Shown here piece after piece: positions 1-22,897 of a stretch of 64,000 nt of DNA (its first letter is position 1; every line of letters starts with the position of its first letter). The DNA is from Marsupella aquatica (lineage: Eukaryota; Plantae; Marchantiophyta). A program made the position numbers and the translations under genes. The notes beneath the pieces were generated by a model, which saw nothing but the letters and a program-made list of their open reading frames with translations, ran no database searches and was not told the DNA's origin. The stretch spans positions 2,130,420 through 2,194,419 of the forward strand of contig OZ316893.1 in NCBI GenBank assembly GCA_973895155.1, given 5' to 3'.

Positions 1-3000
1 AATGTGGAAAGGGACCCTGTTTGTTAGATCTGGTAGTTATATTTGCCACATATGTTAAACCACGACTGGCCATATCTAAGGAGTAATTGTACAAGATCTC
101 CCCTTTTTTCTCATTTTATTCACTGTTTTCTCTACAGTGCCAGTCTGTTTATAATTTCAAGAAAAATTAATTGTAATTGTAGCTACAGGTAACCCATAGC
201 TTTTACATGGCAAGTGTGGTTTAAGGAATAACCTCACATGCAAATCAGGTTGGTACAAAATAATTATTTATTTATTAGAATCTTGGAAAAACTGTAACAT
301 ATATTTGAGGAATCTTCTAGGCATGCTTTTATGGAGAGAACTTCTAAGCATATGTTCTCGAAAAGTGAAAAATTGAAATCTACGGAAATTGCTTGTGCCA
401 TTGCGCATCTGAAAGGAGAAAATTTTACCTTTCCGTGCAGGACATGCACAGCCTAATTGTCCTAGGGTATGCTATGTCTTGTGGGATTTGTCCCTATGGG
501 CAGACAAACAAACAAACAGAAGAAAGGGAAGGAACTAATATTTGTCGAGGACCCTCACTAGCTTGAGAGTTTTTGGATGGTGAGGCCCAGATGGACCTCT
601 AGTGTTGCCACAATGCTCCCATGCATTTTTGCGACCCCAGTGGACCTCATTATACTCCCACTGTCGCAAAGAATGTTCTTAATCATTCTATCCTATTCCA
701 TGGGTTCCAGATACAGTCCATGAAATTGGAAGAATATATAGTTCAAGAAAAACGGAAAGAAGATTCACAAATTGTATTGCTATGGGGACCAATAGCATCA
801 TGACTCTAGGCACATTTCACCTGAAAAATATTTCACAGATGGATTTCAATTTCACATTCCTTGAAACACAACTTTCTCACATGTGCGCTCGTGGCTTGAG
901 TCGACAGGGCGCAAAAACGAAGGAAAAAAACTAACGCAACGAACTAAAACTGGAACGGCTCATTTTTTTTAATTTTAAATTGAAAAAGGTTTTATTTAAA
1001 ATTGAGATCTTACATTGAATGCCGTTCGATCTCGCTCGATCCGAAGCGCTTGTCATAAGTTCGTCCGCCCTGCAGTCACCCAATCAGGTGACCGTGCTAG
1101 CAGCAGAATGATGTCATTCTTGCCGACGCCCCTTTAGTCCTTTACCCACTTCAGAATAGTTTACAACTTTACATTCTTGGGATAGAATACCTACATCTAG
1201 GGATATTAAAAGTATATCCGAAAAACGGAAAGTGCGGGACATCGGAGGCCAATCATTTTGGCAGTCAGCCCTTCGTTCACAAAATTCCCGCAGGCGTTTG
1301 CACAAGCGTCACGACGGTGCTCCGTCACTCAAGACTGTACTGGCCACAGACGTTTCAGACGCAGTCGCCGTCTGGGTGTCCAGGAGTTTCGATCCTTGGA
1401 GGATCAAAAAAGCATCACTTAGTAAGGATCACTCTGCCTATTCTTCAGAAGGGAATTCTCTGAAGGTTACCTACAGTCGGCCCCTGAGTGCAAACCCTGC
1501 CTAGCTGCAAGTTTGTCCGGTTCTTTCCTTTTTCCCCACAGCCGTTTGCATTTAATATGCAGGTTTTATAGAGCGAAGAGGGCTTTTGTAAACATTTTGC
1601 ACTTACATTTCACAAATGTGTAAGTGCAAAATGCTGCATACCATTTTATGTAAAGTTAATGTTGCAATCATTAGAGATAGCTGACTGGATCTCATTAGAA
1701 ATTTGAGATTTTAGAATCTCTATCTCTACTGTATCATATCTATAAGTGCAAGTCCGAGAATGTGCACTTATCATTTAGTGCAAACCACATATAAGTGCAA
1801 GGGCCCAGGAGTGTGTACTTAGAAGGAGTTTCCTGTAAATTGAAAAAATGAAACAGCACTTCATCCTGAAATGCGAGCGAATTAAAGTGTGAGCACATTG
1901 AGTGGCCGAGAATAGTTGTTGCAAGTACATGAGTGGGAGAGCAAGGTCCCCGAAACTTTGGATAAAATTTTGTAAAAATACTTCTAGGTGGGGTTTGCTG
2001 GTCCCCCCTTCGCGCCACCCCCCCCCCCCCCCCCCCCCCCCCACACACACACAAATAAATTATTCCATTCCATATTCTCTTGGATCAGAAATGAATTACT
2101 CCTCCGACTGTTTATGGTGGTCTATGTATTTGTTCTTAAGTTTAATTAGCCAGGTTCGTGTAAGGAAGTAAGAAATGAAAAAGGACCAAAAAGGGCAAAA
2201 TCTCCCGGATTTCATTGGTATACCTACTGTAAGATGGAACATTTGATGGTGTACAGAATTTTGAGAATAAATATGAGATGTGGGCCCACCAATTTCCCCT
2301 CATTGGTAGTCAGGGCAGTTCCTAATTTGGATCCTCACAAGATACCCAAGAGAAAAGTCATTGTTGGGGGAGTGCTTTTCCGTTTCCTTGGCTTTTCTTC
2401 ACGTCACTAGAAAACAAGAGAGGCGTGTTTGGGGGATATTGGGTTTGTGACGTGTATTTCATGGCCTCTGGCCTCCGACGGCGGAGCCTCCGCAGTGGGG
2501 CTCAAGGACCACGCCAAATATTCAGTTACTACACGTCCCCAAGGGCAGATGAGCAAAATGTTAGCAATCAAATGAACCTACATGTAGCGCTGTTTCTACT
2601 TCTTGTACTGTCCTAAGAAAAGAAACAATCTATTAAAACCTTTAAAGAAGATTCCAGAATCGACGGTTCAAGAGCTTTTTCCTTGAGTAAAGAGGTTGGA
2701 AAACATCATTTTCTTCACCTCAAATACTGTCTGATGGTATGGATCTCTGTTCTCATGTTCAATCTCTCCTCATTAAGATGCCATGCAAAGAAAACTGTCA
2801 ATGTGGGATTCTCTAGGAAACCGAGTACAGTAATGCTAGATAATATTAATATTTTAAACATGATTTGACAAAATATTTTAGTACCTCATAAGGGTGAAAG
2901 GAGTTTTCCAATATATATGTTAAGAATATTCTCAAGTATCTTGATGTCAATAATGACTTTTTTAGTGTATACATTGGTTTTAAAATTAGAAAACCAAATC

Positions 3001-3709
3001 TGGAGACTAATATTTGTGCATTATTTCCTTGAACAAAACACGATTAATGTTTTGCGCTGAATTGTGGGGTTGGTACTACTATAGGAGTATCCAGGTGCAT
3101 TACATTGTTCACCGCCGTAAGTGTTCCTCACATCAATTCTGGTGAAGCAAATTTTGGCTGCACTCCTGAATTAGTTACCCAAAGAAACGCTACAGGCATT
3201 TTAAACCAAAATTGCCAAAATCAAAGAAGGTGCATGCCCCAGATTCAGCATGAAAATCCTTGGCCCTACAATGCATGGATGATTGTTGAAAAACCCTGTT
3301 CCGCTCTTATTGGAAGTAACAATAATTTCCCCCTCCATCTATTTAGATGCTAACACTAATAGCAGTGGACGTGTAGGTGTATATTTCAGTGTGGCAGTCA
3401 AGCCTTCTAGAAGGGTATGTAGAGACGTCCTTGTTGACCGGTACTCTCACCAATTTTTATTTGACAGATAGAGGGAAAACAAACCCAACAACCAACCCTC
3501 GCAAACCAGGGTCAAGCATTAGGTTCTGGGAAAAGTCTCATGGTAATCTTAACGTTTATGTGAGGATAATTTAAATTAAGAAATGCTATTTTCATGTTTT
3601 TTGGAATGGAACATTAAATTAAATGACACATAAATTGCAATAACAAAATATATAATAGTCTTAGAAGAAGGGAGTTTTCTGGCACACCTGGGATGCATAA
3701 TTATGATTA

Positions 3710-3937: not shown

Positions 3938-5480
3938 TAAGATTTCATCGTGCTTCCCAGCTTGGCTTAGCCCATGCATGCTAGATCTCCGGCAACATTA
4001 GTGTAATGTGTATCATTGATAGGTCCCTTGTTTGAAAGTCACTTGTCTTGAACTGGGAATCTCTAAACAAGAGTGTCATTTCAAGATGCCCAATTTGAAC
4101 ATTTCCCTGTGCTGAATTTGGGTTTCTTCAACAGGATCAAGAGTATTATAAGAGTTATTATGTTTTACTTGTCAGTACAAGTTTCATCCAAGACAAAAGA
4201 AAGATACACTTACTATCCTGAATACAATTATATTTGAGTAAAGGAAGGGCTTCCCTTACTCAGCCCGCAAATCCCTACTCACAAGTATAGTTTACATATC
4301 AAAATTTGTTATTACTAGAGAAATTATCATCTTTGATTGCAGTCCATGGAGTAGGTCATGAATAGTAGAGTGACGTTGGTTGTGATTGTAGTGTAGATGT
4401 GTCAAGACTTCCAGATTGGTCCTGTAAACAAGGGTCCACATGGTTGAACTTTGGTTGTTAAAAATATCATTCTTTTTTACACTCGACCAACATAAACTTC
4501 TAGAAATGGCTGATAAAGGAGAAACACTATGTGCCTATGTTTACGTGGGTAGTTTCAGCTTATGAAACACTAGGGGCTTGAAGTGGTTTATCCCCTAGTC
4601 TCAATTTTTTTGGAAACTCTAAGTCCTAATTCATTGGGGAATGTCATTAAGATGACCGCCTGCCACAAGTTGACTAAGACTGATTTGAAGACTCTTGCAT
4701 GTAATGAATTGAAAAGTGTTGAATGTGAGGAAGAGAGAGTTTCCAATAATTTGATGTACCTAGAGCATGCAATCTTTGAACAAGCTTGAAGGCTGGTAGT
4801 TACACTTTTTCTTCTGACTTTAGAGCTACATACATGCCTCCATCAGCTCCAATGTATCTACATTTTTAAAAGGCATAGGTGATAAGAAAATAGTATTTTT
4901 AAATTCAAATTCATATAATATTTTCTAATATAAACCTTTTATTTTAGCAGTGACAGTGAAAAAGGCCCTCGTTGTGGACTATTTTATAGTAAATAAGTAT
5001 TTTGAGTTAAACCCAATGTTTTTCTATGTTTTGTTGTCAATTGCAATGGTGCTACCACTTTCAACAATACCATCGGACAAATTAGATGGAATGGTCATCA
5101 AAGGCAAGAATGCTATCAAGCAACAAGGGAGAATGGGGTAGCAAGGGGCAAAATTGGGCAGCAAAAAAGGATAAGGAAAAGACACAAGGCAAAATGGAGG
5201 CAGCATTGGGGAAATTTGGACATCAAATAGAATTGAAATTAAAGGAACAAAAGGATATATGTATTAGACATGGCATCTCTAAGGCACCTCATTGACAAGT
5301 GTGAGAATAACCTGGGTTGGAGAGAAAATGTTAACTTTGTTTCAAAAGTTATTATGCATCATTGAAAAGCATAGTTGCTAGTTGCCAATTGATTTTTAGT
5401 ACTACACACCAGGACTAATCAACTTGTCAATACCTAGTGCACGCTCTGGGTGCATGTTACATCCAACATACAGTTTCATT

Positions 5481-5510
5481 CACTAGTAGAAACCGGGGGG
5501 TATTTAGACC
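5481..5510 (+). repeat. Left TIR of CACTA element
   Basis: CACTAGTAGAAACCGGGGGGTATTTAGACC. Confidence 0.95.
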
Positions 5511-6306
5511 CCATTAAACGACTATTCAGTACCGTATAGGACTTGGAAACGACTGGGAAGGACTCTAGTCCTTTATAGGACTGCGAGTCGTATGTTTTGT
5601 TACTATAATCAACTGAATCCTTTATAGAACTGGTTTATAAGTCGTTTAATAGACTGGATTTTCAGTCTATTTTAGTCTTTGTGTGGGTAGCTTTGGTGAG
5701 TCGTTTTCAGTCTTTTATGGGCTGCGATGATGAGTCGTTGGGAACGACTAAAAAGGTTATGGAGGGTAGTCTTTAAATATACTTTGTGGGGTATGTATAA
5801 GTCTTTCATGTCAACTGGATATGAGTGATGAAGACCCCACTATACTACTTGGAATGAACCCACTCTTGTGCACAAATAACATATTGCATTCATATTTTAT
5901 TGTGTACTTGGAATGAACTCACTCTATAAGTTCACCATTCATCATGTTAACATTAGAATACATAGTTTCAGAAAGCCATCTTCTATACCATGTACACTAA
6001 TATGAATTCACAGATTCAAACTTCATAGACTACAAAGAAGGTCACAAAGTATTCCTCTATACTATACACACTAATACTGAAATGATAAAATAGATTCAAG
6101 TATCATAGACAATCACCATAGAGCCATAGTTTGACATCAATCACTTGTTTCATACATACAGAATTCAAAAATATCAATGTCACACACAATGTCTCCTTCA
6201 TCCTCTTTACCAAATGGAAAAATTGGTACAGATATTTCTTGGATCTTTCCAAGGCAATGTCAAAATGTGACACAATTCACATGATTCTATCTACACTTGC
6301 ATTCAG

Positions 6307-9300
6307 TCATTGCAGACTAACACACTCTGATGGCCAGAGCACAAGAGATCCTACTGCATTTGCAATTATTTCCTAAGGTGGATCATCGTCTCTATTCGGA
6401 AATGGCAAATTACAATCAGATACAATCACTGTAGTCAACAACACTACTACATGGTCATCCGGGATCACTTTGCCATGGAATTTTGCATGATCCGGTCGCA
6501 AAATGCCTGTACCCACACATACCTGCGAGTCATCCTCCCATGATAGAAGATTATGGACTGGCTCTGCTGTGGCTATCACCTCCACCTTACCCTGGTTGTT
6601 TTTCTTGGCTTTCCTGGGTGGCTTATACATGACATTATTCATACCTTGGTTGCGAGTCATGACTTTGGCACGAGTGTTTTGTGCTGGTGATCGAGAATTG
6701 GCTACACTCTTCTTCAAAGAATCTGCATCCATATTTGACACTTTTGATTGTGTAGCAGGATTTCCCTGCGACATCATCTCAATATCTGCCAACATTGTAC
6801 TTGCTTCAATTGAAGCATCTACAATCTTACTTGCATCCAATGTTGCTCCCAAGTTTTGACGTCGCTTCACCCTATTCCCACTTGGTTGAGAGTCTGTCAA
6901 CTCTGCATCAACTACAATTCAGTGTCATGTCCAACATAAGTCAATCACTCATCACATGTGCTAAATGTACATGTCACCAACCACAAAGTTGTCACTATCT
7001 CCTTACCATTATGAACAGCCTTCTTCCCCTTCTTTGCCATTGCCATATGCTCCATGTCTGCTTCTGTTGATCAATAAACACACCACAATATTCAGGTTGA
7101 ATCTATTAACCACTGAATTGTTGCTCAACATTCATATAGAGGAATTTAAAGCATCAGCTTACCTGATACCTCCTTGGCTATGGTCACTGAGGCACTGGGC
7201 ACATCTTCTTCATTATTGCTCTTTGAATCACCTGATACATCAATCATGATGTCACTTCAGATCCCAGTTCATCCAACCAGTTCTTACAGAAAAGATTACC
7301 TCCAACCGGCTTAAGCTTCACAAAACTCCATGCACTTTTCAAATGTAATGTACTGGATCATAGCAGGTTACCTGTCTCAGCAACCTTCTTGCCCTTCTGC
7401 TTACTGATTACAGGGTCCTTCTCTGCCTCCACTCTTCCTGCATTCAAACCATTCACTCAATTCATGAAAACTTACTTCTAACATTTGAACATAGGACACA
7501 ATGAACAATGGGCTGGTGTCATTTCCATACCTGTGTCAGATTTGCCAATTCCCTTTTTTGTTAACAAGGGCACACTTTGTACAATGTTGCCCTCATTGTT
7601 TGGTTGGGAACCACCCAATTTTTCAATCACAAGCTTGAAATTAGATTCCACTGATGCAAGAAGGTTCGCTACAGATGCCTCCACAATATCCAAACGATCA
7701 GCCAATTTACTTTCCACTCGAGGGAGTCCACACTCTAATGACTTCAACCGTTCACACATCTCTGTGAGAGTTGTAACAGTTCCCTGTCATAACACAGCTT
7801 ACATATCTCAGATAACTGTCCCCAAGAACTGGTTGCTTACTTCCTACTACATTTCTTTCTGATGCTCAAGGCCAAATAGTCATAGAACATACATAATTAC
7901 AACATAATCACCTGTTTGGAAGTCACACTTGTCACCTCACTCCTTTGTTTCATGAACTCCTCTCTCACTTCTTGTGCTGATGGTTCTTCACCTGTCAATT
8001 TCTTCTGCAGTCCACATCAACATACATATGAATGAAACCAAGTGTTGATTGTCAATGAAAATGTAATAATGGTAGCAAGATGATAAGTTTGAGGCTTACT
8101 ATCAGGCATGTCACTGCCTTACCAATTGTTCTTTCACTGGAGCATAACTTCCTCTCCCAGCCTGTGAAAGGTGTTTCACTTTGCCTCGAGCATTTGACAT
8201 CAGTTCACTCTTGCTCTGTCCAGCCTCCGACATGAACCCTTTGATTAACCGTGTCCATTGATCCAGTTCCAATGATGGGGGTGGTGGCATTCTCCTGTTA
8301 GAACCATTGTCTATCCACATCCTTTTCAACCTATGCCTCTCTTGTTTCAAAATCCTCATTGCATAATCTGATATGCAATCTTCAACTGGGCCCTTACCAT
8401 CATTACCAACATAGTCCCACCGTTCAAGAATGTCCTTGCAGATAGCAGCCCAATCAGCTTTGTTCTAACTCCTAAACTCTGTAATGCTCAAATCTAACCA
8501 ACGCAATACTTCTCCTCTTAGGTTAGAATGCCAACGGTTCTTACCATCACATGTGGGAGTTATCCAACCTTCGGAATTCACTTCTACTTTACCAAATTTG
8601 TTACTGTCTCCTGCCTTGGTACTCCTTGAAGCGCTACTAGGTGTCCCTCCACGGCCTGGTGTCCCCCCACGGCCTGGGGTCCCTCCACGGCCTGATCTCC
8701 CCCCACGGCCTGGATTGCATTGTCCAAACCTCCCTGGAGTCCCTGCACATTTACAGGATCCATTTACAGTCACTTACATTAGGTAAGTATGAATCATAAA
8801 TCCCGCTGCCAAATATATAGTGGACTTCAGAGCAATTCTGCAATGACCAAGTTACCTCTCCCTTGGCGCATAGATGGTTCTGGACCACCTGTCCTATTGC
8901 TTTGTCTTGATGAATTAGGGGCGTTTCTCCCGCCTGTGAATGATTGCCTCCTATCTGAACGTGGATGGCCTTTGTTGTTTTCGTGATTGTCCCAATCAGA
9001 GTCTGCATACCAACAGGTACATGCCACACTCATGGACCTGTAAGATAAACTCTTTGCCCTAGCTACACATCAGATAAGTGCATATTGAGCTAAATCTCTA
9101 CTACCATCACAAAATCACTAGCACAAGGCACTTACTTGTCCAATCATCCTCCTCACCTTTCCATTGCCCTCTGTACCCGTCTCTACCACGCTCTGGGTGT
9201 TCATATTCATCCCATCCATCTTCTGCTCCATCATAGTCATCATCATAATTATCAGGCGTCCCTTGCCAATAACTCTGGCTCCTTCTAGGGTATGGATTAT

Positions 9301-9478
9301 GTGATTTCTCTCTAGCTGCCCACCTACCTGGGACTTGATGAGGGCCCTGTGCATCTTGCACAGGTGCATTTTTCTGTGAGCCCCCTGCATCTGGGTCTCC
9401 ATCCATATCCAATCTTTCCTCTTCACCCCACTCTCCAAGCCCCATGTCTGTCTCCATGTCATCACCCTCTTCCCCCAT
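6307..9478 (-). pseudogene. TnpA-like second gene of the CACTA element (Ptta/En/Spm-like region plus C-terminal TNP1/DUF8039-like domain), 9 predicted exons, 2 premature stops
   Basis: Phase-consistent GT-AG exons: 9478-9136, 9002-8856, 8742-8123, 8004-7912, 7783-7531, 7437-7372, 7231-7163, 7063-7007, 6902-6307. Motifs are QWTRLIKGFMSEAGQSKSELMSNARGKVKHLSQAGRGSY and FHGKVIPDDHVVV...LPFPNRDDDPP*EIIANAVGSLVLWP. In-frame TAGs lie at 8465-8467 and 6373-6375. Confidence 0.75.
8640..8712 (-). repeat. 18-bp coding tandem repeat encoding (PGRGGT)n, an RGG-rich segment
   Basis: CC(T/C)CCACGGCCTG units x4 on the + strand, translated as PGRGGRSGRGGTPGRGGTPGRGGTP. Confidence 0.8.
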
Positions 9479-9655
9479 AGCTTCTGCACAGCACCCACAA
9501 CCAAATAGGGAGAATCAGCACACTAAATTCAAAATATCAATCAATTTCATGCATATCCAACTATCCTAAACATCATTCCAGGCAGCAATTCCCGTTCTGT
9601 GACTCTATGCAGGTAGTCATCCTCAACCTCATACTTGCCAATCGCCAGCTGTTGC

Positions 9656-12600
9656 CTATTGCAAATCATCAACCTCATCATATTCCATTTTCCCAGGTTC
9701 ATCATATGTCTCTCTCAATGTTAAGGGGATGTAGTCAGTCCTTGCCCGAGTTGGAAGTACAGTCTCATGACTAGGATGCTCGAATGCAGCATGGTCATCC
9801 AAACTAAACTCTACTTTACTTCCATCCATCCGCCTGTTCCGTGCTTGGCTATGGCATACCACCCTCCAGCCATGTGACTCCTCCACATCTGCAAAGAAAG
9901 CCTGTTCAACTTGGCTAGGGAAAACAAAAGGCTCAGACCATTCTGGTACTCTGGACCTAAAATTGGCCAACAAGAACCCATCATGATCACGCTTCATGGT
10001 GGCCCTTGGTCTCTACCACTCTGATTTCACCCATGATCCCTTCATCAATATCACTGGGACACTTGTGTTACCATAATTCAACACCCAAATGTCGGTCAAC
10101 TCCCCCACGTAACCCATCTTCATCCACCCCCTCTGTTCTTCAGAGGTTCTGTGCTCAAACACAGAAATCAACCCACAATCATATGATACACAATGGTCAC
10201 CCTGCTCATCCCTCACTCGATAATGATTTCCATAAGCTCTCATCCGTTTGTAGGTCAGAATAGACAATCACGACGGCACAGATAGAAGATACAAATCCTT
10301 CTCCATATCTGGGTGATGTCTACTATGCTCTCGAATTGTCACCCGAATCCACTGCTCGAACTGTGGGAAGGGATCCTGCTGCCCAGAGTGTGCAGCTTTT
10401 TGCATATCATATTCCCTGCAATATGAGGTACAAGCATAGTTAGGTCTAAACAACACATGACAACCCAAGATCACCCTTGGAACAGACAAGAAGCATCACA
10501 ACAAAGGCAAGTCAATTCAATCACTCACCTCCACCATGGTTGCATAGGCTCTGTGTTTGCCAGCACATATGAATGAGCCTTGTCTCGAATCGCAACAGGC
10601 AGCTAAACAGCACGTCCCACACCTTCAACAACCTCACCACTCACTCCATCATCTTCACCAGATTTCCAAACTCTTGTCATAGCTTCACCAGACCCAGCCA
10701 TGTACTCTGTTAGGAATCCCAACGTCTCATCCTTAATGTACCCCAATGCCATGGAAGCCTCTGGCTTGTAGTATGTTCTCACATGACCTTTCAACAACTT
10801 CATGTATCGCTCCATAGGGTACATCCATCTGGTACTGACTGGCCCATACTGCCCTAGCTCTTCTACCACATGGATTAGGAGATGAGTCATAACATCAAAG
10901 AAAGCAGGGGGGAAGTATATCTCCAAGTCACAGAGGACATAAGCAGCATCCTGCTTCAACTGCTCCAATCCTTGGGGATCCCACACTTTCACACATATAC
11001 GGCGAAATACATTGCACAGTCAAAGAATGACATTACGGACTGGTTTCTGCATGAGACCTCTGAGGCATAGGGGCAGAATGTGCTGCATCAACACATGGTA
11101 GTCATGTGTTTTCATACTGCCAAGTTTATTCTTTGTAATATGCTTCTTGAAGGCACCAGCATAGCCAGAGGGCACTTTCAGACAGCTCAATCTATACAAG
11201 AATGTCTTCCATTCATCCTGTGTGCACACATAGGGAGCTTGGAACTTGAGAAGTACATTGGGATTGCTTGCATGGGGCTTCAACCAAAGGTGAGGGCGAA
11301 TCCCCTTCTGTTGCATATCAGCTCGAACTGCTCCTGTATCTTTCTCACCCGACAAGAACTTCAGCAAGCTCTCACAAATATTTTTCTCAATGTGCATGAC
11401 GTCCACATTGTGTTTGCTGGGCTCGAATTCCTGCACTCCACAAAGCAAAGAATTCAACAACAGAAACACTAATTAACCACAGAGGAGGATTGTAACCAAC
11501 ATCAATCCACCATTGCTCCAATCTAAAATTGCAATCATACAGGGGCTGGAGGCTAAGTACATTACCCTCCAGTACTCCAACTCCAAGTCCATCAAGGTCT
11601 GTCTTTTCACACCGTGTTTCACCACTGGATCCTCAGGTTCTCGATCAGTGGCACTTCTCTTGTCCCAATCAGCCTTCCTGGCTGCCCACCTCAGGACTTG
11701 CTCTCTGGTGACCCTCTGTGGTGGGCCACGAAACTCTGTTTTGTTGTTGAAGTGTGCAATTTGAGACCGTGTGTGCCTGTAAGGATGATCAACAGGCAGA
11801 TACCTTCTATGCCCCTGAAATTTCATACTGTGCAGGGCATGCGACCACTCACTTGTCACATTTTTCCCACATGGTGTGCACCCCACATAGCCCTTTGTCA
11901 CTCGTCCAGATATGATGCCATGGCCTGGGTAATCTGCTATATCCAGCAAACAAATTGCATGCAGTCTAAAGGGGCTGGGTCGAAGAAGCCCCTTCAGAAC
12001 ATCATGGGTTAACACCCCTTCTATCCACAAAGTCTTCCACTCTTCCACTGCTGGAGCCAACATGATATCTATGAATTGCTCGGTCACAGAAGCTGGTCCA
12101 GGGATTAACAGCACCATCATGACAAAAAACCTGTTTGTAGTCATCCATGGGGGAAGGTTGTAATTTAGCAGCGTAACCGGCCAACATGAATAACGGTTGT
12201 TTTTGTCTCCAAATGGGTTTACTCCATCCAGTGATAGACCAAATTGAAAGTTCCGCTTCTCTGCAGCAAACTGTGGCCACCTCTCATCAACAAATTTCCA
12301 ATGGTTGGAATCTCCAATGTGACGCTGCAGGCCATCACTGCTCTTGTTATCAAGAGTCCATGTCATCAGCTTGGAAATGGCAGGGCATCTAAACAGACGT
12401 TGTAGTCTAGGAATGAGAGGAAAATGACGAAGAACCTTGGCAGGGTGTGTACATTTCCCTACATTCTTGTACCTGTGCTTACCACAATGAGGGCATGTCA
12501 ATTTATCTGCATGCTCTTTGCGAAAGAGAACACACCCATCAGGGCATGCGTCAATAGACACATAGTTCAGCCCAAGGTTAGACATCAATTTCCTAGCCTC

Positions 12601-13356
12601 GTACATATTTTTTGGAATTGAATTACCATCTGGTAACACATTTCGGCGCAGGAAGGTCAACAACTCTGTCACAAATATATTGGGAACATTGTGATTGCCA
12701 CAGATGTTCAACAACAACACGACAAAACCCAGCTTGGAGTAGTTCGACCCCTCGTAGATAGGAATGCAAGCTTCTTTGATGTGTTTTGGGCCCCCAAACA
12801 CCCACTCCCTCTCTGCTGCACCTTCCCCAATGTCAAAGTCAGGTTCAGCTTGGCCGTCGCCAATGTGTGGCTGCGGTTCATTGTCCTCTTCTGATTCCAC
12901 TGTGTCGTAAAAAGCATCAAGGTCTTCAAAAATCTCTTGAACCATTCTTGGGACATCCATCCCACCGTCCTCAGTGACTGCCTCTGCCTCTCCATCTTGG
13001 TCATCCACGTTCTCATGTTGGACCCCAGGACCATCCTCTGCACAGTCTATGTCCTGCTCTACGTAGTCTCTACGCCTAGCTGTATTAGAATCCACAAAGT
13101 CAGCTCTCCACTCTTCATCAGAGGAGTCTTCTTCTGCTGGTACATTCCAAACCCTCCACTGAGGGTGCCTTTCATGCCGCAGCAGGTGAAGGTGCACAGT
13201 GTTCAAACTCAACGACTTGAATCCTTGGCACTGTGTGCATGGGCATCTCATCCTCCTACTCCTACCTTGGGCGGCCCGGGCTTGTTCACGCATCCACAAT
13301 TTAGAATCATGATGCCTAATCCTAAATGGGTTGTGAAGAGGCAACCTTGGAGCCAT
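9656..13356 (-). pseudogene. CACTA TnpD/TNP2 transposase (transposase-associated, Transposase_21, DUF4218 and DUF4216-type regions), 3 exons, 4 premature stops
   Basis: Exons 13356-11566, 11430-10529 and 10415-9656, with GT-AG introns of 135 and 113 bp. Hallmark motifs: CPCTQC, IDACPDGCVLFR, LRHFPLIPRLQRLF, GLSLDGVNPF, YSCWPV..LNYNLPPW, DYPG, HNVDVMHIEKNI, MKTHDYHVLMQ, FPPAFFDVMTHL, RWMYPMERYM, EPFVFPSQVEQAFF. In-frame stops lie at 11020-11022, 10603-10605, 10268-10270 and 10013-10015. Confidence 0.93.
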
Positions 13357-13710
13357 CACTATACACGCACTCAGCACCCTGTCATTTTATTATGCAAGTG
13401 AAAAATACACTTCCTATTAAGGATTTCACCCCCGACTGTACTTGCCAAAATACGTAACGTTCCAAAAAAACAAAAAAACAAAAAATATAGGTGCCTGAGT
13501 CATGTACCTATTCTCAAGTGAATGAGACAAAATTCCTAAATGTTTGAGGGTGTCAACTCCTCCGCTGTCCTCACATGTACTGCCTCTGCACGTACATCCA
13601 TGACCATATCAGAGTCCAATCATGTATAGTCATAGACACAGGTGCCAGGTGCGAGACCGGTGTGAGATGTCCTCATCTTACTACCACATCAAATACGGAT
13701 ACCAATCCTG

Positions 13711-14154
13711 TTATCGATGCCACTCAGCCCTGAGGTACTCAGGCATGTACATTAAGTCATCAAGGTCTAAACCCTGCTCATGCCATGGTGGTCTTCGATC
13801 CGTGCCTACAAGCAGTGGCAGCAGTGCCCTCCATGGTGCACATGTTGCTACCAAGTCCCTCCATTGGGTACTAATTAGTCTATATTTGCAGATATCTTGT
13901 GCGCCAGACACCACAAGAACCCTCGGCCAGACATGTGTAAGAACTATATCATCTGCCAAATCAGGCAACAAGGAACCACCTACAGCATCGTGCTTGTCTA
14001 ACTCATCTGCTGAAAAGTAAATGTCCTCTTCCGACTGTGCATCCTCATTCACCACAACATTCACAACACATCCAAGGTCTGCAGGCATTATCTCGGATGG
14101 AGCTACACTCTGTCTGGTTACCAATCCACACAAGTAAGCCCAAGCAGTAGCCAT
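13711..14154 (-). CDS. F-box-like protein carried inside the CACTA element (possibly truncated at the C-terminus)
   Basis: SLLPDLADDIVLTHVWPRVL...QDICKYRLISTQWRDLV fits the F-box pattern LPxLPDDI...R.V(C/S)xxW. First ATG at 14154. Confidence 0.6.
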   Translation of the reverse strand: MATAWAYLCGLVTRQSVAPSEIMPADLGCVVNVVVNEDAQSEEDIYFSADELDKHDAVGGSLLPDLADDIVLTHVWPRVLVVSGAQDICKYRLISTQWRDLVATCAPWRALLPLLVGTDRRPPWHEQGLDLDDLMYMPEYLRAEWHR

Positions 14155-14390
14155 GCACGATGCAACCCGTAGGAGGACCCTACATAGGGCCTGACGGTCT
14201 GGAAGAGGCAGCATACCCACCAAAGTTTTCAGCCAAACAGAGCCCAGCAAGTAGATTCACAGTCACACCCCACGCAGCAGGAAACAACAATCACTTCAAC
14301 TGCGACCAACCATGACAAGATGAGTTAGTTCAAGGATCACATTTATTACAAAATTGTGATTTATACAAAAATATGAGGGACTCCTACTCC

Positions 14391-15239
14391 TCACTCTCTC
14401 CCACCTTTGCTAAGCATACATCTCCGCTGAATCTTGGAGGGCCAGGCCTCAAAAATATCAAAGTCCCAAGCATTCTGTCGCTTCCCTCTAGCTGCTGATT
14501 CCAGAAGCCAATCAGGGGAAAGCACCCAAAGATTGTTGTTCATGATAAAATCACGCACTGTTGTCTTAAAGAATTTTCTGCATATTTTCATGTATGACAG
14601 ACCTACAACATGAGTGGAGGTTTCTGTTAGACTCTCCTCCACTGTCCCACCTAGCTCAACAACTATAGACTTGTACAGTCTGCACTTAGTCTCCCCAATT
14701 CCTTCTTCTGCAAATACCACACTGAACCCCTTCATAATGGTATTTCTCTCCTTGCCATGCTCATTCAATATAGCATCTGCACGCATAGGATGGTGTCCTA
14801 TGTTGACAACAGGTCCATATTGGACAGAAGCAAAGTTGGGTTTCTCTGCCGCTGCTTCATAGGCTTCCTTTTCAGCCAAAGCCTCTGCAGTGGCCTCCTC
14901 ACTCTCCCACAACTCATATTGCTCAGTACTCTGTACACACCTATGTTTAACAGAATTGGTCAGCCAAGAGACTTCAACTACTTTTAGACCTTGGTTGGTA
15001 ATGGCAGAATCAATGAAGGACCATGACCACTTGTTCATCACATCCAGCCATGTCCCCGCAACAACATGTGTAGTCTGTGGAGTGATGTCCTTGACTTCAG
15101 TTCCATGGAACTCTGAGAATCGTTTTTGTACGATTGGCCAACTCACTTGGGTGAACCCATAGTGGCCAGGAATCAAAATGGCTTTGATTCCAGCCAACAG
15201 AGGCGGGTGGTCAACCTTTGTACGTTTCCTAGAGGCCAT
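14391..15239 (-). CDS. Tandem-BRCT protein carried inside the CACTA element (BRCTs resemble plant DNA polymerase lambda BRCT)
   Basis: Uninterrupted 282-codon ORF. It has two BRCT signatures: ...FHGTEVKDITPQTTHVVAG...LKVVEVSWLTNSV...EQYEL and ...ELGGTVEESLTETSTHVVG...WVLSPDWLLESAARGKRQNAWDFDI. It starts with basic RKRTK, and AATAAA lies downstream on the minus strand at 14342-14347. Confidence 0.8.
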   Translation of the reverse strand: MASRKRTKVDHPPLLAGIKAILIPGHYGFTQVSWPIVQKRFSEFHGTEVKDITPQTTHVVAGTWLDVMNKWSWSFIDSAITNQGLKVVEVSWLTNSVKHRCVQSTEQYELWESEEATAEALAEKEAYEAAAEKPNFASVQYGPVVNIGHHPMRADAILNEHGKERNTIMKGFSVVFAEEGIGETKCRLYKSIVVELGGTVEESLTETSTHVVGLSYMKICRKFFKTTVRDFIMNNNLWVLSPDWLLESAARGKRQNAWDFDIFEAWPSKIQRRCMLSKGGRE

Positions 15240-15837
15240 GTACACACGGGCCACCTAATCACTGCAGACCGGAAGATAATGCGTTCACCTGATAATCGGA
15301 GGGCCCTTAAAATGCTGCGTTTATAACTTGGTCCAGTCCAGTCGTCTGGTGAGTCTCTGCTCCGATTCCAAACGGGAGAAATATTGGGACAAACGTACTA
15401 GACACCTGCAAGCATGCACCTCATAGTTTGAATATGTGCCTTCACAATATTGAAGGTGACAAGTGCAATTGTTTTGTGATGCCACATACAGATGTTGTAA
15501 ATGGGCAGACATTCAATGAGAATACAAAATGTTGGTACACTTTAAGGGAATTCTCGCAAATTAAATAGCCTTGTAACTTATATGCTCATAATGAGAAGTC
15601 CTGATTTAATTTAAGCAGTGTCATGTAAGTCGTGATCAAAATGATTGCAGAGTTAAAAAAGTTCCTAGAAGGCTTAAGGGGAGTTTTTGAAGGCATGTAC
15701 CCAGGAACAAGTAATGAACTTAGGGTACTTGTTGCCTAAGCATCCTCTCCTACAGAGGTCCTTCTTCTCAAAATTGGAATGTCTGCAATCTCCAAGGTAT
15801 CCACATCAGGTGCACTATGCATGTACATTATTCAGGT

Positions 15838-16517
15838 TCAAAGCCAAGAAATGTGATCTCTCATGGGAGTGTGCAAAGTAGGATCTATGGCATGGCGATG
15901 ACAATAGAAGATCCATCGATCAACACCATGTGCAGAGTGATCATAGATGTGTCTGTCACAAGCATACCTTCTGCTTGACGCTCCTTCAAACAATGAAAGT
16001 GCCACATGGTGGGACACCTAACACAGTGGACTATGTCCACCCAGAAATCTTCATCGTGCTGACCACATGCCTTGCACTTATGAAGTGGGCAAGCTGTGGC
16101 AAGATCGGGCAAACATGAAAAACAAAAGAACCTCACACAATATCTGCCAGGGCATTTCCTAACAAGTGGTGGAGCATCAACAAAGCCCTCATAAGACCCC
16201 AACTTCCCACACTGTGCACACTTAGCCTGCTTCTCCAAACAATCAGTGCACATCCAGCCTCCCTGGTGTGCTGACGGGAGGCCCACCCCTGGACAGTTGT
16301 TTTCTGCAGCAAGGTCAGACTCCGGGTTGAGGTGGAAATGCCTCATGCAAGGGCCCTCACATATGGCTAAGCCACCACCATCGTCACAAATGGCACAACA
16401 ATGAGCTGCCTTTTGGAAAATCTGACTTGCGGAGAAGTTACTACCATCTGGCCCAACTACACCTGTGTTGCTCACCTCTGTCCCCCGCTTCTTGGCTCGG
16501 ATTTTAGGGCGTGCCAT
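15838..16517 (-). pseudogene. EDM2/NSD-type composite PHD-finger protein carried inside the CACTA element (one frameshift near 15955-15990)
   Basis: CAICDDGGGLAICEGPCMRHFH...WMCTDC...CAQCGKLGS...C...C..CPLHKCKACG...CVRCPTMWHFHCL. In the shifted frame it continues RHIYD...DRWIFYCHRHAIDPTLHTPMRDHISWL*, which parallels the EDM2 segment after the PHDs (recalled as RVLIYCQEHEIDEELLTPVRDHVKF). Confidence 0.85.
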
Positions 16518-17186
16518 GCCTACGCATGAGACAGATAGTACAATTTAGCAGAGTGCACAGACAATACAATTTAGTGTAGTGTACAAAAAGTACAGTGTAG
16601 CATATAGACTAGAGTGGCAATTGCTACTGCAATGAAATGTTCACACACATGTGCAGAGTAGACATACTTTTTGGTTTGTTGAGCCCACACTAAAAACTGA
16701 TCCCCTCGTACAATAGCTCCACCTACACCTCAATTTTGTGGCTATGATTCACCAAAGGAGATCTGCAACAAGATTTAATGCATTTGAATCACATATAACA
16801 GTCGTGACATGTAAAACAGGCATTTTTTGAACAGGATTGGTATCAAGCACTGTGATCAGGGTTGTAATTTATACATCCTAAATAGGCTATGATAGTGAAT
16901 GAGACAAATAAGTTAGGCAGAAATCACTTTTTCCAGGTTATCACATGGCCCATTAATTCCAGTCTTTGAAAGGAGACTTTTAAGTGAGCTTGCTAGCCTC
17001 TTAAATTAGGATATTGTACTTAGTGCAACCATAATAGGATAAGTTATGTACTGTTGACCCTAAACCCTGGACCCAAAATTGGTCATAATTCAAAATCTTA
17101 AGTAAATATCCTCTCTGTTCAAGTCAAAGTGTTAAGTTATAGGTCAATGGTCTCTGGTTTGTGCATGCGGTGTGACAAGTGGTCCT

Positions 17187-17636
17187 CTAGAGCGTGTGAT
17201 CCAAACATGTGTAGACACCAAAGTGACCGGTGGTGGGGTCTGGGAGGGCAGGACAAGTGACATCGCCAAGCACACTGCAGGATGGCGAGTGGTTCCAGAT
17301 GATACATTGTGCTCTGTGAAAAAACCGACATCCAAGAGAACGGTCATCCAACTCTAGGCCAGAAGCCCTACAGGCAGGACAGTCATATTGGCAACTGTGC
17401 ACACACCCTTGGGCCCTAATTTGTGGCGGGTCATGTACTAGAGACATAAATACCAAGGATGTTGGGAAGGGTGGAGAAGCAGGTACAGGCCGGCTGTAGT
17501 TGTTCCTGGCAACAACTGGGTACTCAAAGTACCATGCAGACTGGGTTGGAAGGATCCCAAGTCTGACATACTCAAGGCGCAACATCTCTGCCTTGCGTGC
17601 AAGCCGCACATGTTCAGCGTTGCGGGTCCTCACCAT
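17187..17636 (-). CDS. Orphan Cys/His-rich 149-aa ORF inside the CACTA element
   Basis: ATG-initiated and co-oriented with the other element genes. Basic N-terminus and a CxxxCxxxCxxC...C..H...C...H...C cluster. No family recognised. Confidence 0.35.
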   Translation of the reverse strand: MVRTRNAEHVRLARKAEMLRLEYVRLGILPTQSAWYFEYPVVARNNYSRPVPASPPFPTSLVFMSLVHDPPQIRAQGCVHSCQYDCPACRASGLELDDRSLGCRFFHRAQCIIWNHSPSCSVLGDVTCPALPDPTTGHFGVYTCLDHTL

Positions 17637-17899
17637 AAGTGTTGCTTTTGTGGAGATGTCGTGTGTTCACGTCCTCTGATAAGCACCTTCGATCAGCAAG
17701 GTGAGCAGGAGCTGTACTTGCCTCACCAACAACAACCAACCTTAAATTATCAGTTCCCACTCACTGTGTCATTCCATTGGTTCCAGCTAGGGGTCACAGT
17801 GTAAACATAGCATGAAACACTCCTAACCAACTTGCTTACAAACTACAATATCCAGAAAGAGTGAAAGTCTCACCCTCCAGTGAGCAGCAGAGAGGTAGT

Positions 17900-18286
17900 T
17901 CAGTAGATGTGTTGATGTGCAGTTAAACCTCCACTATTGCTTACTTCTGGTGTATGCTGCTCAGAAGAAGACATATTAGTAGCAGCAAATTGCAAATAAT
18001 GGCCATAAGCAAACCGTGAGAGTTTGCAGAATGCTACGACAAATCCATCACAGCAGTGCTCCACAGGAATGAAACCAAGCAAAATTTGGTGACCTCGGCC
18101 AATGACAAGGCCAATGTAGTGAACAATCCTTGACCGATCAGGATATGGATTGGAATTACAATTAGTCAGCTCTTCTTCTTTGTTTTCTAACTCTGGGGGA
18201 AATGAGCATGACCAGGGAATTCTCTGAGAAATAGAAGTGCACAGGGAAAATGAAATTGGCTCATTCAGCTGCGCAAGACCGGCCAT
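17900..18286 (-). CDS. Hypothetical ORF inside the CACTA element
   Basis: Open frame 17900-18433 with an internal ATG at 18286, on the same strand as the cassette. No recognisable domain. Confidence 0.2.
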   Translation of the reverse strand: MAGLAQLNEPISFSLCTSISQRIPWSCSFPPELENKEEELTNCNSNPYPDRSRIVHYIGLVIGRGHQILLGFIPVEHCCDGFVVAFCKLSRFAYGHYLQFAATNMSSSEQHTPEVSNSGGLTAHQHIY

Positions 18287-20812
18287 TGCAGCATACTTGG
18301 ACAGTTGTTCCGCAATACATAAAATACCCTGACTTACATGCAATCGATACAATCTGCTTCTGTTGGCTGTCCTACAGCTCACGGCAGTGTCGTTGGGATA
18401 GGGTAAGTGAATATTGCCATAGCTAAAGCACATTGAGCTTGCAGCAAGAAGTGAAGGAGGATGGCCAAAAGCAGAAAAGACAGACAGGTTTTACAAGAAG
18501 AAACTAACAACCGCCAATCTGCTCAAATCCGCTGCATAGATCAAACCCTCCAAACTACACAGCCCTCCTTTGAAAACAATCCAATGTGCTTTGGCTGGTG
18601 GATGACAAGGACTGGGAGAAGAGGAAACGTCTACACAATCAATCCAAATGACGGGACACAGAGACCAGGCACAGAGAGGATTTGTGCTTAGACAAAAACC
18701 ACAAATTGTAGCATGGGCGCCATAGCATTGGGCGGCAATGGGAAGAATTACATCAAATGAGTGGACAGAGAATGAACAATCCGGTTATAGGCAAACAGCG
18801 ACTGATGCCCTGATGCAATGAAACACGCATTGACATAGCGGAGGGACATAAAAACTACATAAGCCAACTTACTGACCTTTTAAAGCCCACAATTTCAAGG
18901 GGAGGGACAAAGATAGCAGTAACAGACGCAGAGACAAAGCTGTACTCTGTCAATTGAATAGGCAAGTGGGTGGGTGAAGATCAACAACCAATGTAGCAGC
19001 GCAACCAGAGTAGCAACAAAGAAGCAGGTTGCCCTCAGTCTCCTATTTTTCAAGCAGCTTGTGCTCGTGGTCAATCTCCTATTCTGCAAGCAGCTCACGC
19101 TCGTCCCTCTTGTTCTGCAAGCAGGTCATTCTTGTCGGCGATGGTGCAAGCTGTCCTCCTAAACTCTAACACTCAAAATGAAAAGACCAAGCACCTCCAA
19201 TCTGTTTGATCCCTTCCGCAAGCAGCCGAGCGGCAGACGATAATGTAGGGATCAAGAACCAAGTGCCAGGCGGACATTGCACAAAATGAGGACCGGGGGC
19301 AGAGACAAAATCTACCAAAATCTACCAAAATCTACTTCTTGGGGTCCAGCCCACGGATGGACATCATGCAAGGTGGTCAAAAATGGTAAGTGCAATTGTT
19401 GGAGAGCTGTACTCGCGATTACTAACGGTGCATCCACAAAACGCGTCATCAAGTTGTCAGTGCGGCCACAACAATTTTGATAGTCTCAGGATCACAGGTC
19501 CACAAACAAGTTGCAAATGAAGACACACAACATCCAGGAGGGAAAGTCCGCAACACTAACCCTTTGTAAAGCCCCCGAGCTTACCTTCTAGCTGCCGACG
19601 CAAAGAGAAAACCTACTCGGACACTCAAGCAACCCTAAACTCAAAGTCTCACCTTAGCGCAACAACTCCTGGATTGGATTCAGCTAGCTCAGGCTGAATC
19701 CCACAAAAGGACAGAGGACAACATCGAAAAGCAATGTAGCCATGATGTCTTACCAGCAACGGGATCTTTAAACTTAAGGCGGTGCACTCGGCTTAAATGG
19801 CAGCAGGTAAAGGTATTTTCTTCAACAACTATAGTGGTAATGTTACCCGTGCTTTCGTTCTCTGCCGTGGTGCTGCAACAACTCCCTCCGTAGCCCAAGC
19901 CTAAGGTGCAAATCACCAGCTCGCTGCTCTTGCTACTTGCTAGTGCCCTTCACTGAAACGCAAAACAACACAAAGACGTAAGATGACTGACCGGAAGACA
20001 ATCCCGACAACCTCATATGACAGACTGCTTTTCTAGTGTGAAGAAATACATGATTACAAGCAACACCACGCCTCATCCAAGCAGGGATGTACATGAATAC
20101 AACAACAAAAATTTGCATACAACGATGGCCCGGTCACTTGAGGCTTTCGAGCCCTCACAATGTCAGATGGTACTAGGATCTACAAGGGATGCTAAATGGC
20201 TTCTCTCAAATCATGGAGTCTTGAATAACTCATATCCAGCGACAAACAAACTCAACAAATTCTGAATTCCTACCGAATCCAATCAGAATCGGCAATTTCA
20301 GCAGCTTCGACTGCCAAGACAAATCATAATGAATTTCATTGTGTTGGGGTTTTCCATAACTCTTCAGCCATAGGGAGAATGTGCTGAACCTAATGTACCA
20401 TTCAATCAGGCAAGCTGTATGCTATGGAGGTATGACATTGCTCAAAATAGGATGGACCAGAGGAGATGTAGCTACTACGCAGTCAACTGAGAACAGAGCG
20501 GAGCGGATCTGCTTGAGCTCTGCTACTTGTTGTTTGGTTTTTGGGCATGAGTGTAAGGAGTGGGTGCGCAAGCTAGGGCCTATAGTAACCTTCAGCCTGT
20601 AGAGGCAATGAAAGTATTCAACAGACAACCCAACAAAACAATGTGGAACTAAAGTTGCTGGAAAAGGGATGAAAGAAGCACACTTTCAGCTGCATGGCCG
20701 GGACTAACCTTTGGTTGATGACACTGATAACCAATGGCAGCACTGTCAACTGCTTCCTCCTAACAAACAACCGGCTCCCGATTTTGCAACTGCTCTTTAA
20801 GCTCCACGACCT

Positions 20813-21060
20813 CCTTCACAACTCCAATGTCCACCTTCCGCAGCAGCAATGATTGCCTCCCTGCTCAGCCTCCTTTCAATGCCTCCGCAAGCTTTAAGGA
20901 CCCACTACAGTCCACCTTCCGCAGTGGTCGCCTTCCACAGCGCCTTCACAACTCCAATGTCCACCTTCCACAGCAACAAACGATTGCCGCCCTGCTCACG
21001 CCTCCTTTGAATGCCTCCGCGACCTTAAGGACCCACTACAGTTAAACTTCCGCAACAATC
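20813..21060. repeat. ~130-bp tandem duplication within the CACTA element
   Basis: CCTTCACAACTCCAATGTCCACCTTCC...TAAGGACCCACTACAGT occurs at ~20813 and ~20942. Confidence 0.8.
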
Positions 21061-21849
21061 ACCTCACCTTACAATAGACCTTGGCACCGCAACACCTTCC
21101 CAGATCACAGCTCCTCCCCTCAGCTAAACCCTCAGCGCCTCAGTCCCCAGATCATAGCTCCTCCCGAACTGCAACTCACTGAAAACCTAAGCACTAAGGA
21201 GTGCCCTCGACATTGTTGCCGTTGCGCTGCACATTGCCCTGCCGCACGACATTTCTCATAAGGAATGGAATGACCTAAGCACTTAGGACTACCCTGGACA
21301 TTGCCATTGCGCTCCACATTGCCTTGTTGCACGTCGTTTCTTGGTAGAAATGGAGAAATCTAGACCTCCGACACAATCTACAAATCCTTTTGCAAGCAAC
21401 TGGCCCTCTCCTCAACAGCTCGCGATGGTAGCACAACCTTCTTGAAACAAATGGCAACACAAAGTCGCTCTGGGTGCAGCCACAACACATCGGCAGTGCG
21501 GGTCAGGAGAATTGTGCAACAATGAGAGGCCCTTCTCTCAAAAATCCCCGAAGAATGAAGCCCTCACAACTAGCTCCGATCGAAGGTTGCAGCAGCCACA
21601 ACCTTCTTAGCCCTACAGCCAAAACCTAAATCCAACGTAAAACCCCGAACCTTGGACCCCTCACGTTTTGCGTCCAAATGACAATGGCCCAAACACTCCA
21701 AAGTCACTCCCAAAGACCAGTTTAGTGCCTCTTTACTAGATTAGAGGACTTAAGTCATTAAGGGGAGCCACTCAACCTTACCGTTTGAGTGAGCCGTTGA
21801 GTGTCACCCAAAGTGAGACACCACTACATTGAAGTGTTATTGCATGGCC

Positions 21850-22150
21850 ATCTTGGGTATTTCAGCAAATTTTTCTTGGCTTGGAAAAGTTCAATAAAGC
21901 CGGATGTTGGTGAAGTAGAGCCGGCTGTGAATTGAAAATCATGCTAGCCCAAAAATCTTGGGTATGCGTGCACCCGGTTCTTGGCTTGGCAAACTTGAAT
22001 AGAATGGGATGTTGGTGACCCCCACCCCCTTGAGACCTAACCGGCCCACCCTTGACATATAAACCCTACTAAACCCCCTTTAGTGGTGACCACCCACACC
22101 CTTCACATATAACCGGCCCACCCTTGACACGTAAACCCCCCCTAAACCCA
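21850..22150. repeat. Subterminal direct repeats of the CACTA element
   Basis: TCTTGGGTAT...TTCTTGGCTTGG...GGATGTTGGTGA twice, and AACCGGCCCACCCTTGACA...AAACCC twice. Confidence 0.7.
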
Positions 22151-22453
22151 CTATGGAGTATATGAGACATTAGGGCATTTAGACATGTAGTGAGTTTGTA
22201 CGTGTTCAATATAGCGGACGTAAACCCCCCATATGCCCATTATCAAATTGAGGCCCACAACTAAACCCTACAACACTCATGTGCGAGAGTGTTCACCCTT
22301 TCACAAAGTAGGGTACGTGGAAACTTTTCATAGTCTTATCCTAAACCAAAAAGCACTCACAGTCTTTTGTAGTGTTCATGTGAACCGGTGCAATGGTTCC
22401 GAGTCATTTGAAGTTGTAAAAAAGGACTTAGTGGCCTTAGTCCTATAAGGTTT

Positions 22454-22482
22454 GGTCTAAATTGCCCCGGTTTCTACTAGTG
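22454..22482 (-). repeat. Right TIR of CACTA element
   Basis: Reverse complement reads CACTAGTAGAAACCGGGGCAATTTAGACC. Confidence 0.95.
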
Positions 22483-22552
22483 ATTGCTCTGTCTCACAAA
22501 CTAACTAAGAGCATTGTTAGAAGCACTTTCAATGCATTCGCAATTTTGTAAG

Positions 22553-22897
22553 TGTTAGGATTTACTTTTAGGTCTGGAGTTACGAATGTACCGCAGTTAG
22601 GACTAACCTTAATAACATATTAGGTTAGGTTAGTCATGTTGTGCACACACTATACCCAAGCGGTGTTTTCTTGGATAGTAGGAACATGGGCTCATTGTTA
22701 CAAAGCCAGTTGAGAGATAGGGGGAGTTTGTGTTGTGAATGCTTGGTATGGCCGGTCGGCCTAGAGTGCAGAAAGCTCTTGTGTGTTCCCGTGGACATAG
22801 TCTCATGTGGAGGTGAACCACATATCTCTCTGTGTCAACTTTTGTGCATTGGATGGTTCATGGGCTTGTCATTTGTGATTATCGTCTATGCTCAACA
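22553..22897. mobile_element. Probable solo LTR (345 bp)
   Basis: TGTTAGG...CTCAACA termini. Flanks GTAAG/ATAAG are a 5-bp TSD with 1 mismatch. Homologous sequence occurs inverted at ~53633-54248 and ~40920-41150. Confidence 0.6.

Follow-up and report, generated by a model that had tools for sequence, protein, structure and literature searches.

A CACTA element in Marsupella aquatica and its family-wide cassette of putative accessory genes, one of them of the EDM2 PHD type

To our knowledge, few of the factors with which plant transposons counter silencing are understood in mechanism. Here, we describe a CACTA transposon in a stretch of 64,000 nucleotides (nt) from the liverwort Marsupella aquatica (contig OZ316893.1, positions 2,130,420 to 2,194,419 of the forward strand; hereafter the window). 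The element is 17,002 bp long (window 5481-22482) and carries, beside its transposase genes, a cassette of small open reading frames (ORFs). We moderately favor the reading that this is a dead copy of a CACTA family in which four genes (a putatively EDM2-derived PHD gene, one with two BRCT domains and two of less certain status) are accessory factors that keep the element expressed and mobile in silenced chromatin.

CACTA/En-Spm elements encode TnpD plus TnpA. The element in the window shares with them its CACTA ends, a 3-bp duplication and a Transposase_21 gene with DUF4218 and DUF4216, and a putative tnpA-like gene lies head-to-tail, as in several Arabidopsis EnSpm families (PMC13547354; here and below, statements on published systems refer to the available parts of the cited sources). 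It differs in having four further genes on the same strand upstream of tnpD. In Plavaka elements of red algae, several accessory genes (PAG1-3) likewise form a conserved cassette next to a transposase of the EnSpm type, and they too comprise an orphan and genes related to chromatin (bioRxiv 10.1101/2025.02.11.637652). However, PAG products are enzymatic (N6-adenine methylase plus SET; ParB plus 2OG oxygenase), whereas the cassette here, in a land plant, consists of small binding modules with no catalytic domain. Fungal TET/JBP genes are also host-type chromatin genes inside complete elements (EnSpm, Plavaka and other DNA transposons), for which silencing evasion was proposed, but they represent a single eraser enzyme in place of a reader with adaptors (PMC12730594). 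VANC of the VANDAL MULEs is, as here, a separate accessory gene combined with fast-diverging or variable non-coding DNA; it belongs to another superfamily, binds DNA repeats and has an established function (PMC10398659), whereas the present cassette is known from sequence. No VANC-type domain was matched among the cassette ORFs.

The closest relative of the PHD gene is EDM2, of the ASI1-AIPP1-EDM2 complex. Both proteins have collinear 2.5 atypical PHD fingers that end in C4HC2H (PMC3776765, PMC7529245), a last finger of the EDM2/NSD1 type (PMC3776765). The PHD protein here is about 226 aa long against 1297 aa for EDM2; RFD was not found in it, and it has no room for a methyltransferase-like domain. 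Moreover, its middle finger is ~20 residues shorter, one His ligand is a Cys, and its gene lies inside a transposon.

The original prediction held that this combination of genes was not known in a CACTA element. What appears to be new is the EDM2-type reader in a transposon accessory cassette, whereas accessory cassettes as such have already been published for the EnSpm superfamily; neither these precedents nor the EDM2 identity, the frameshift or the H3-like N-terminus described below figured in the original prediction. We found no EDM2-type gene or H3 mimic in a CACTA element in the literature searched (subscription journals and Repbase lie outside it), and no report in the open literature searched on CACTA with PHD finger and BRCT or on EnSpm accessory BRCT with F-box. 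In the available part of PMC12973397, Table S6 covers 775 active CACTA clusters and has a BRCT accessory match in one of them and PHD or F-box matches in none (these occur in MULE rows only). A set of 962 Spm structures (bioRxiv 10.64898/2026.08.24.746577) could include such domains.

Element structure and family-wide presence of the cassette

The prediction that the cassette lies within boundaries defined by terminal inverted repeats (TIRs) and a target site duplication (TSD) was borne out. The TIRs are identical across 18 nt and are flanked by ATT outside each end, and the 12-mer that starts the TIR has two matches in the whole 64 kb, at 5481 (+) and 22482 (-). CACTA-starting TIRs, a 3-bp TSD and a TnpD transposase with its associated domains place the element in CACTA/EnSpm, and the presence of a full tnpD gene sets it apart from the non-autonomous Pack-CACTA structure. 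Every gene lies on the minus strand. From the 5' end, the order is ~4 kb of non-coding DNA, ORFs of 177, 149, 210, 282 and 167 aa, tnpD and the tnpA-like gene, so that the cassette is positioned upstream (5') of tnpD along transcription and tnpD starts 9 kb from the 5' end of the element. CpG is depleted throughout (observed/expected 0.23-0.53), which fits methylated DNA. The window copy is dead: tnpD has four in-frame stops (11022, 10605, 10270 and 10015) and the PHD gene is frameshifted. Position 10015, unlike in the window copy, is a sense codon in contigs of sequencing runs X1, X2 and X5.

Part of 11500-18500 was contained in 11 of the 13 listed runs (9 studies, seven coded organisms), none of them on record as RNA, and seven runs were compared with the window in detail; X1 or X2 is possibly derived from the window's own source. 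Median summed contig depth, which according to the tool's warning is not equal to copy number, was 3479 for the cassette, 3025 for tnpA and 488 for the 5' non-coding DNA in X1; the corresponding values were 135,523, 205,295 and 7,908 in X2, and 91, 145 and 10 in X5. The 5' non-coding depth was thus 7-17 times below that of the cassette in these runs. Two near-identical X1 contigs of tnpD had 88 and 95 times the depth of a difference-free flank contig, one such deep contig (12749-13632) spans from tnpD to 79 nt before the stop of the F-box-like ORF, and X1 single-contig variant rows within BRCT and PHD were at depth 1806-1851. In each of organisms A, B and C, the depth over the PHD, BRCT, F-box-like and Cys/His ORFs was that of the family. 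Since cassette and transposase genes are evenly covered, the cassette belongs to the family, and the 5' 4 kb varies. A concern attached to the original prediction was that the cassette might be restricted to this one copy; instead, it is family-wide and is carried by a many-copy CACTA family.

In run X6 (organism D), far more abundant and diverged contigs matched the PHD ORF at depth 1085-3688. Elsewhere in X6, depth was 763 in the F-box motif bin, 849 in the spacer before the F-box-like ORF, 149 at the tnpD start and 63 in BRCT1; bins above depth 60 made up 6/18 of the coding and 1/12 of the spacer bins. These depths do not link the pieces into one element, and the 80% likeness limit of contig matching hides more diverged genes. 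Runs X9, X10 and X11 were thin (23, 16 and 6 of 30 bins, with listed pieces at depth 2-18) and were excluded as evidence of presence.

The EDM2-type PHD gene and its H3-like N-terminus

The PHD ORF of the window encodes 210 aa, the last 27 of which are out of frame. Three close relatives (77, 73 and 38% identity; 217-226 aa) among 114 candidates share a conserved C-terminal tail that is missing from the window ORF; the window frame that corresponds to theirs continues to a stop at 15838, and X1 contigs at family depth have one extra base at 15966. A tail encoded in another frame and the extra X1 base together indicate that the window copy is frameshifted, which removes its last Cys and His ligands. 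We also considered an intron at 15967 and rejected it because the relatives continue in frame there.

A PHD profile search of 1.84 billion protein representatives yielded 380 matches, the best of which were short proteins; a separate search for longer PHD homologues returned one unrelated long protein only. All short matches with a checked source (11, plus the first three) came from unannotated Logan, JGI or ENA contigs. Many of the short matches are truncated, as would be expected of dead transposon copies; the whole ones are 217-245 aa long with their own start and stop, and the relatives are 41-83% identical. The long matches checked include the Arabidopsis EDM2 cluster, EDM2-like proteins of mango and mesquite, and unnamed proteins of Ceratopteris, Marchantia, Calypogeia and Riccia. 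The PHD sequence (P0001) shares 30% identity with Arabidopsis EDM2 in an alignment of 211 aa (E 8e-27) and at most 39% with named host proteins, the nearest named EDM2-like proteins being those of liverworts. It is therefore not the near-identical recent host fragment that the original prediction had to reckon with.

In a tree of 46 rows from 153 (16 chosen short members, two unplaced short ones and 28 others, with five truncated short members omitted), the 16 short PHD rows formed one side of a branch (support 96/97, stem 0.96). They were not nested within any named host group, and the tree left their sister group unsettled. Twenty-six Cys/His columns are conserved in 68 long EDM2-type proteins: 24 of these are the same in at least eight of nine short members, one has changed from His to Cys in all nine, and one is lost. 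Cys was kept at 20/20 positions against 110/157 for other residues (Fisher p 0.0014), and in a second comparison at 19/20 against 48/152 (Fisher p 4e-8). Whole relatives have the 2.5 atypical PHD fingers with a C4HC2H last finger, and, in place of the RFD and methyltransferase-like (ELP) parts that also mark the EDM2 family, gave PHD matches only. Judged by sequence, the gene is EDM2-derived, is not an EDM2 orthologue, and is an old, selected, stand-alone EDM2 module and no recent host fragment. Its AlphaFold model is of poor quality (pLDDT 37).

We also noted a second set of short EDM2-type PHD proteins (P0026, P0028 and P0055; 320-386 aa) that start with Met-Ala-Arg-x-Lys. In the tree, two of them (P0026 and P0028) fall among the EDM2 rows of seed plants, and the set possibly reflects an independent trimming; perhaps it is also transposon-borne.

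After its Met, the PHD protein of the window reads ARPKIRAKK, which is identical at five positions to residues 1-9 of histone H3 (H3 sequence from PMC9677696). Among 21 short PHD members, five match these residues at five places and three at four (shuffle p 0.0003-0.015), and 13 match at three places or fewer, several of them without their start; matching used the best Met among residues 1-25, and because the members are related to one another, they do not count as independent trials. Of 41 basic Met-starts in the window, one reaches at least four matches, and this is necessarily the PHD ORF itself. A predicted complex of the N-terminal peptide with the PHD module scored 0.07, which speaks neither for nor against an interaction. 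We regard the H3-like N-terminus as a lead; it may simply be a nuclear localisation signal. Proteins P0022, P0178, P0015, P0177, P0016, P0018, P0037 and P0054 start with Met-Ala-Arg and match H3 1-9 at three to five places; they comprise EDM2-like host proteins of the liverworts Marchantia, Calypogeia and Riccia as well as some unnamed proteins, and such a tail of the EDM2 family may be undescribed.

Other cassette ORFs and features of the window

The original prediction counted four to five compact ORFs on the transposase strand. Five ATG ORFs do lie there (Table 1), and the fifth (177 aa) is probably no gene: 44% of 81 open non-coding stretches, our background for codon scores, score as high. 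The naming of modules was upheld for the two BRCT domains and for PHD (NSD/EDM2-type, best E 1e-6), while the F-box falls under the Pfam cut-off. Basic N-termini, expected for most ORFs, occur in three of five (PHD, BRCT and Cys/His). Support for the idea that these are accessory genes kept by the element is good for PHD, moderate for BRCT and weak for the F-box-like and Cys/His ORFs, and is lacking for the fifth ORF. Splicing of a single promoter to every ORF is a weak lead: by an ad hoc acceptor score, the ATGs of PHD, BRCT and tnpA rank within the top 2-7% of 447, and those of Cys/His and tnpD do not.

The two BRCT domains are 25% alike mutually (E 4e-7). From 781 candidates, a search of lower sensitivity than that for PHD yielded one cluster of open, whole-length relatives of the BRCT ORF, at 61% identity. 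This best match is itself short, and the ORF is not a near-identical host fragment; comparison with protein collections for host likeness covered the PHD and BRCT ORFs. Against solved structures, the BRCT profile gave weak and mixed matches (DNA ligase IV, E 0.007; BRCA1; Rtt107; TdT, E 0.34), too weak to name a partner, and 'DNA repair' is a family label for this ORF and not a finding. The BRCT domains may also resemble plant DNA polymerase lambda.

The F-box-like ORF reaches a Pfam E of 0.095 as a whole and 0.03 when trimmed (13-15 bits against a cut-off of 20.5), has no match in PDB, and has a codon score above 95% of the background stretches. Its stop (13711-13713) is a sense codon in X6 and X9 contigs, hence some 10 further residues may belong to the protein of the family. 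The short stretch that separates the end of BRCT from the start of the F-box-like ORF (14209-14395, with AATAAA at 14347), which is the spacer at depth 849 in organism D, is a candidate for a conserved non-coding signal or an unrecognised exon. The Cys/His ORF is probably a gene, with a codon score above 93% of the background stretches; it has no match in Pfam, PDB or the PHD profile, and its AlphaFold model is of poor quality (pLDDT 41). Comparison by hhalign gave no support for reading it as a degenerate PHD (probability 0.2).

Table 1. Positions of the parts of the CACTA element in the window
Feature	Position	Strand	Remarks
Left (3') TIR, 18 nt, starts CACTA	5481..5498	+	ATT duplication 5478-5480
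Short subterminal repeats	from left TIR to about 5805		
tnpA-like multi-exon gene, exon limits approximate	6376..9478	-	weak Transposase_24 (E 0.002 at 8114-8359, below Pfam cut-off); acceptor-like site 5 nt before ATG 9478
tnpD, three inferred exons	9656..13356	-	Transposase_21 (E 6e-58), DUF4218 (E 5e-17), weak DUF4216
F-box-like ORF, 167 aa (147 aa from better-context ATG 14154)	13711..14214	-	motif 13849-13971
Two-BRCT gene, 282 aa, no intron required, basic N-terminus	14391..15239	-	Pfam BRCT E 3.7e-13, 2 stretches
Stand-alone EDM2-type PHD gene	15838..16517	-	family form about 226 aa; window copy frameshifted near 15966 (ATG ORF 15885-16517)
Orphan Cys/His-rich ORF, 149 aa, basic N-terminal helix	17187..17636	-	covered at family depth
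ORF 177 aa, probably not a gene	17900..18433	-	no Pfam family match, poor start context
5' non-coding DNA, about 4 kb	18434..22464	-	variable among copies by contig depth; presumed location of promoter
Right (5') TIR	22465..22482	-	ATT duplication 22483-22485

Outside the element, the segment just beyond the right TIR (22590-22885) has very high contig depth in four runs and is another abundant repeat, which partly matches 54159-54209 in inverse. A non-LTR retrotransposon at 54771-58084 (-), which we take to be CRE-like, has two overlapping frames with RVT_1 (E 3e-10) and a downstream Cys/His nuclease-like part. At 37884-39068 lies a 1.2-kb element with ~320-nt inverted ends (86-98% complementarity), at whose ends no 8-10-bp duplication was found. 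The segment 32797-33309 (+) is an exon of a host gene that resembles yippee (Pfam Yippee-Mis18, E 0.013). Two copies of an AT-rich ~550-bp repeat, at 42047-42581 and 48638-49211, are 92-94% identical and separated by 6.6 kb; a third, weaker one occupies 41456-41982.

Competing explanations and implications

How the cassette might keep the element active can be framed around EDM2. EDM2 recognizes H3K9me2 through its PHDs, and transposon sequence in heterochromatin is read through more readily with the help of its complex (PMC7472560, PMC10241880), so that polymerase can cross silenced transposons and reach distal poly(A) sites (PMC7472560, PMC10241880, PMC7529245, PMC10852260). We tentatively propose, with somewhat less than even confidence in the mechanism as a whole, that the mini-EDM2 would bind H3K9-methylated nucleosomes like EDM2. 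Without RFD and methyltransferase-like domains, it would displace host readers from element copies by competition or steer them elsewhere, which would favor full-length transcripts that extend to tnpD. The H3-like N-terminus could be a decoy or self-regulating tail, and the BRCT and F-box-like proteins might be adaptors to repair proteins and SCF ligases, as their domain names suggest. The 'host manipulation' of three pathways (heterochromatin reading, break repair and SCF-dependent degradation) is a hypothesis, with repair and SCF taken from domain names. A bolder version, which we think rather doubtful, is that elements of one plant CACTA lineage are old carriers of a miniature EDM2, complete with an H3 tail mimic, and of BRCT/F-box adaptors, and use them to hijack the host machinery for heterochromatin read-through; silencing would then be countered by a stolen reader and decoy, in place of a protein that binds DNA or an enzyme that erases marks.

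Several observations weigh against the accessory-factor reading, besides the warning on contig depth given above. The relatives of the cassette proteins are known as protein sequences alone, and their location in CACTA elements, like the gene order in distant families, is presumed: searches for relatives with DNA context confirmed none in metagenomes, either with the PHD alignment (113 pattern matches) or with TnpD (45), none in viral contigs (95 and 90) and none in prokaryote genomes (34). Variants listed in the cassette ORFs, counted from 40 of 180 variant rows, comprise 12 synonymous and 20 non-synonymous changes (~27% synonymous expected, p 0.13). The open frame of the 61% BRCT relative argues for constraint, as 0.2% of 2000 neutral simulations stayed open to that distance, but the protein matches are pre-selected as open ORFs. 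Copies in X2 and X5 have a 43-nt skip in the F-box-like ORF, and in X1 the BRCT linker contains, at the depth of the family (1799), a joint of 91 nt whose intervening letters are undefined; if plain deletions, these gaps would shift the frames of the F-box-like ORF and BRCT. In a weak BRCA1-type alignment (E 0.12), BRCT1 has Tyr and Ser at the Ser and Lys places, which we take to be the phosphopeptide-binding residues of BRCA1. Finally, 9 of 160 other proteins reach at least four H3 matches, including EDM2-like proteins of Marchantia and Calypogeia, and such a start in liverwort host proteins means that the tail may have come with the donor gene and not be an invention of the transposon.

Real accessory genes might instead serve transposition itself, with PHD tethering the transpososome to chosen chromatin and BRCT recruiting end-joining repair to excision sites. 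The conservation of PHD fits this role equally, the best structure matches of BRCT (DNA ligase IV, BRCA1 and, weakly, TdT) suit it, and contacts between transposase and accessory proteins have been reported in MULE, Harbinger and CACTA elements (PMC12973397). Nevertheless, we consider it unlikely, since the donor family EDM2 has a described role in heterochromatin transcript read-through (PMC7472560, PMC7529245) and the BRCT matches name no partner. It is also conceivable, albeit quite improbable in our view, that the genes are functional and the unit unstable, each gene being mobile singly between transposon lineages and the order of the four recent and local. The depths in organism D point this way (763-3688 for PHD and the F-box motif against at most 63 for BRCT and at most 21 for Cys/His), as do the many distant relatives of PHD against the single cluster for BRCT, and accessory genes do move between superfamilies in red algae and fungi (bioRxiv 10.1101/2025.02.11.637652, PMC12730594). 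However, organisms A, B and C show the depth of the family over all four ORFs, and the likeness limit conceals diverged genes.

We give least credence to Pack-type passengers, that is, host fragments captured once and amplified without function, or kept as small-RNA camouflage. Pack-CACTA capture and camouflage are documented, with KAONASHI (PMC13317346), the synonymous share is not significantly raised, frame-breaking skips affect F-box and perhaps BRCT, and two genes are broken in the window copy. Such an origin is nonetheless hard to reconcile with PHD relatives that keep their ligands at 41-83% identity, have their own start and stop and similar lengths, and stay at or below 39% to named hosts, or with a whole-length open BRCT relative at 61%.

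If the accessory-factor reading holds, the finding bears on how transposons withstand silencing and on EDM2 itself. EDM2 lets transcription cross silenced intronic transposon DNA, and a stripped EDM2 reader borne by a transposon therefore points to a specific, testable escape route. The H3-like N-terminus shared with liverwort EDM2-like proteins, of which we found no description, suggests a self-regulating or decoy tail. In addition, the mini-EDM2 offers a ready-made minimal construct with which to probe the binding targets of the EDM2 fingers.

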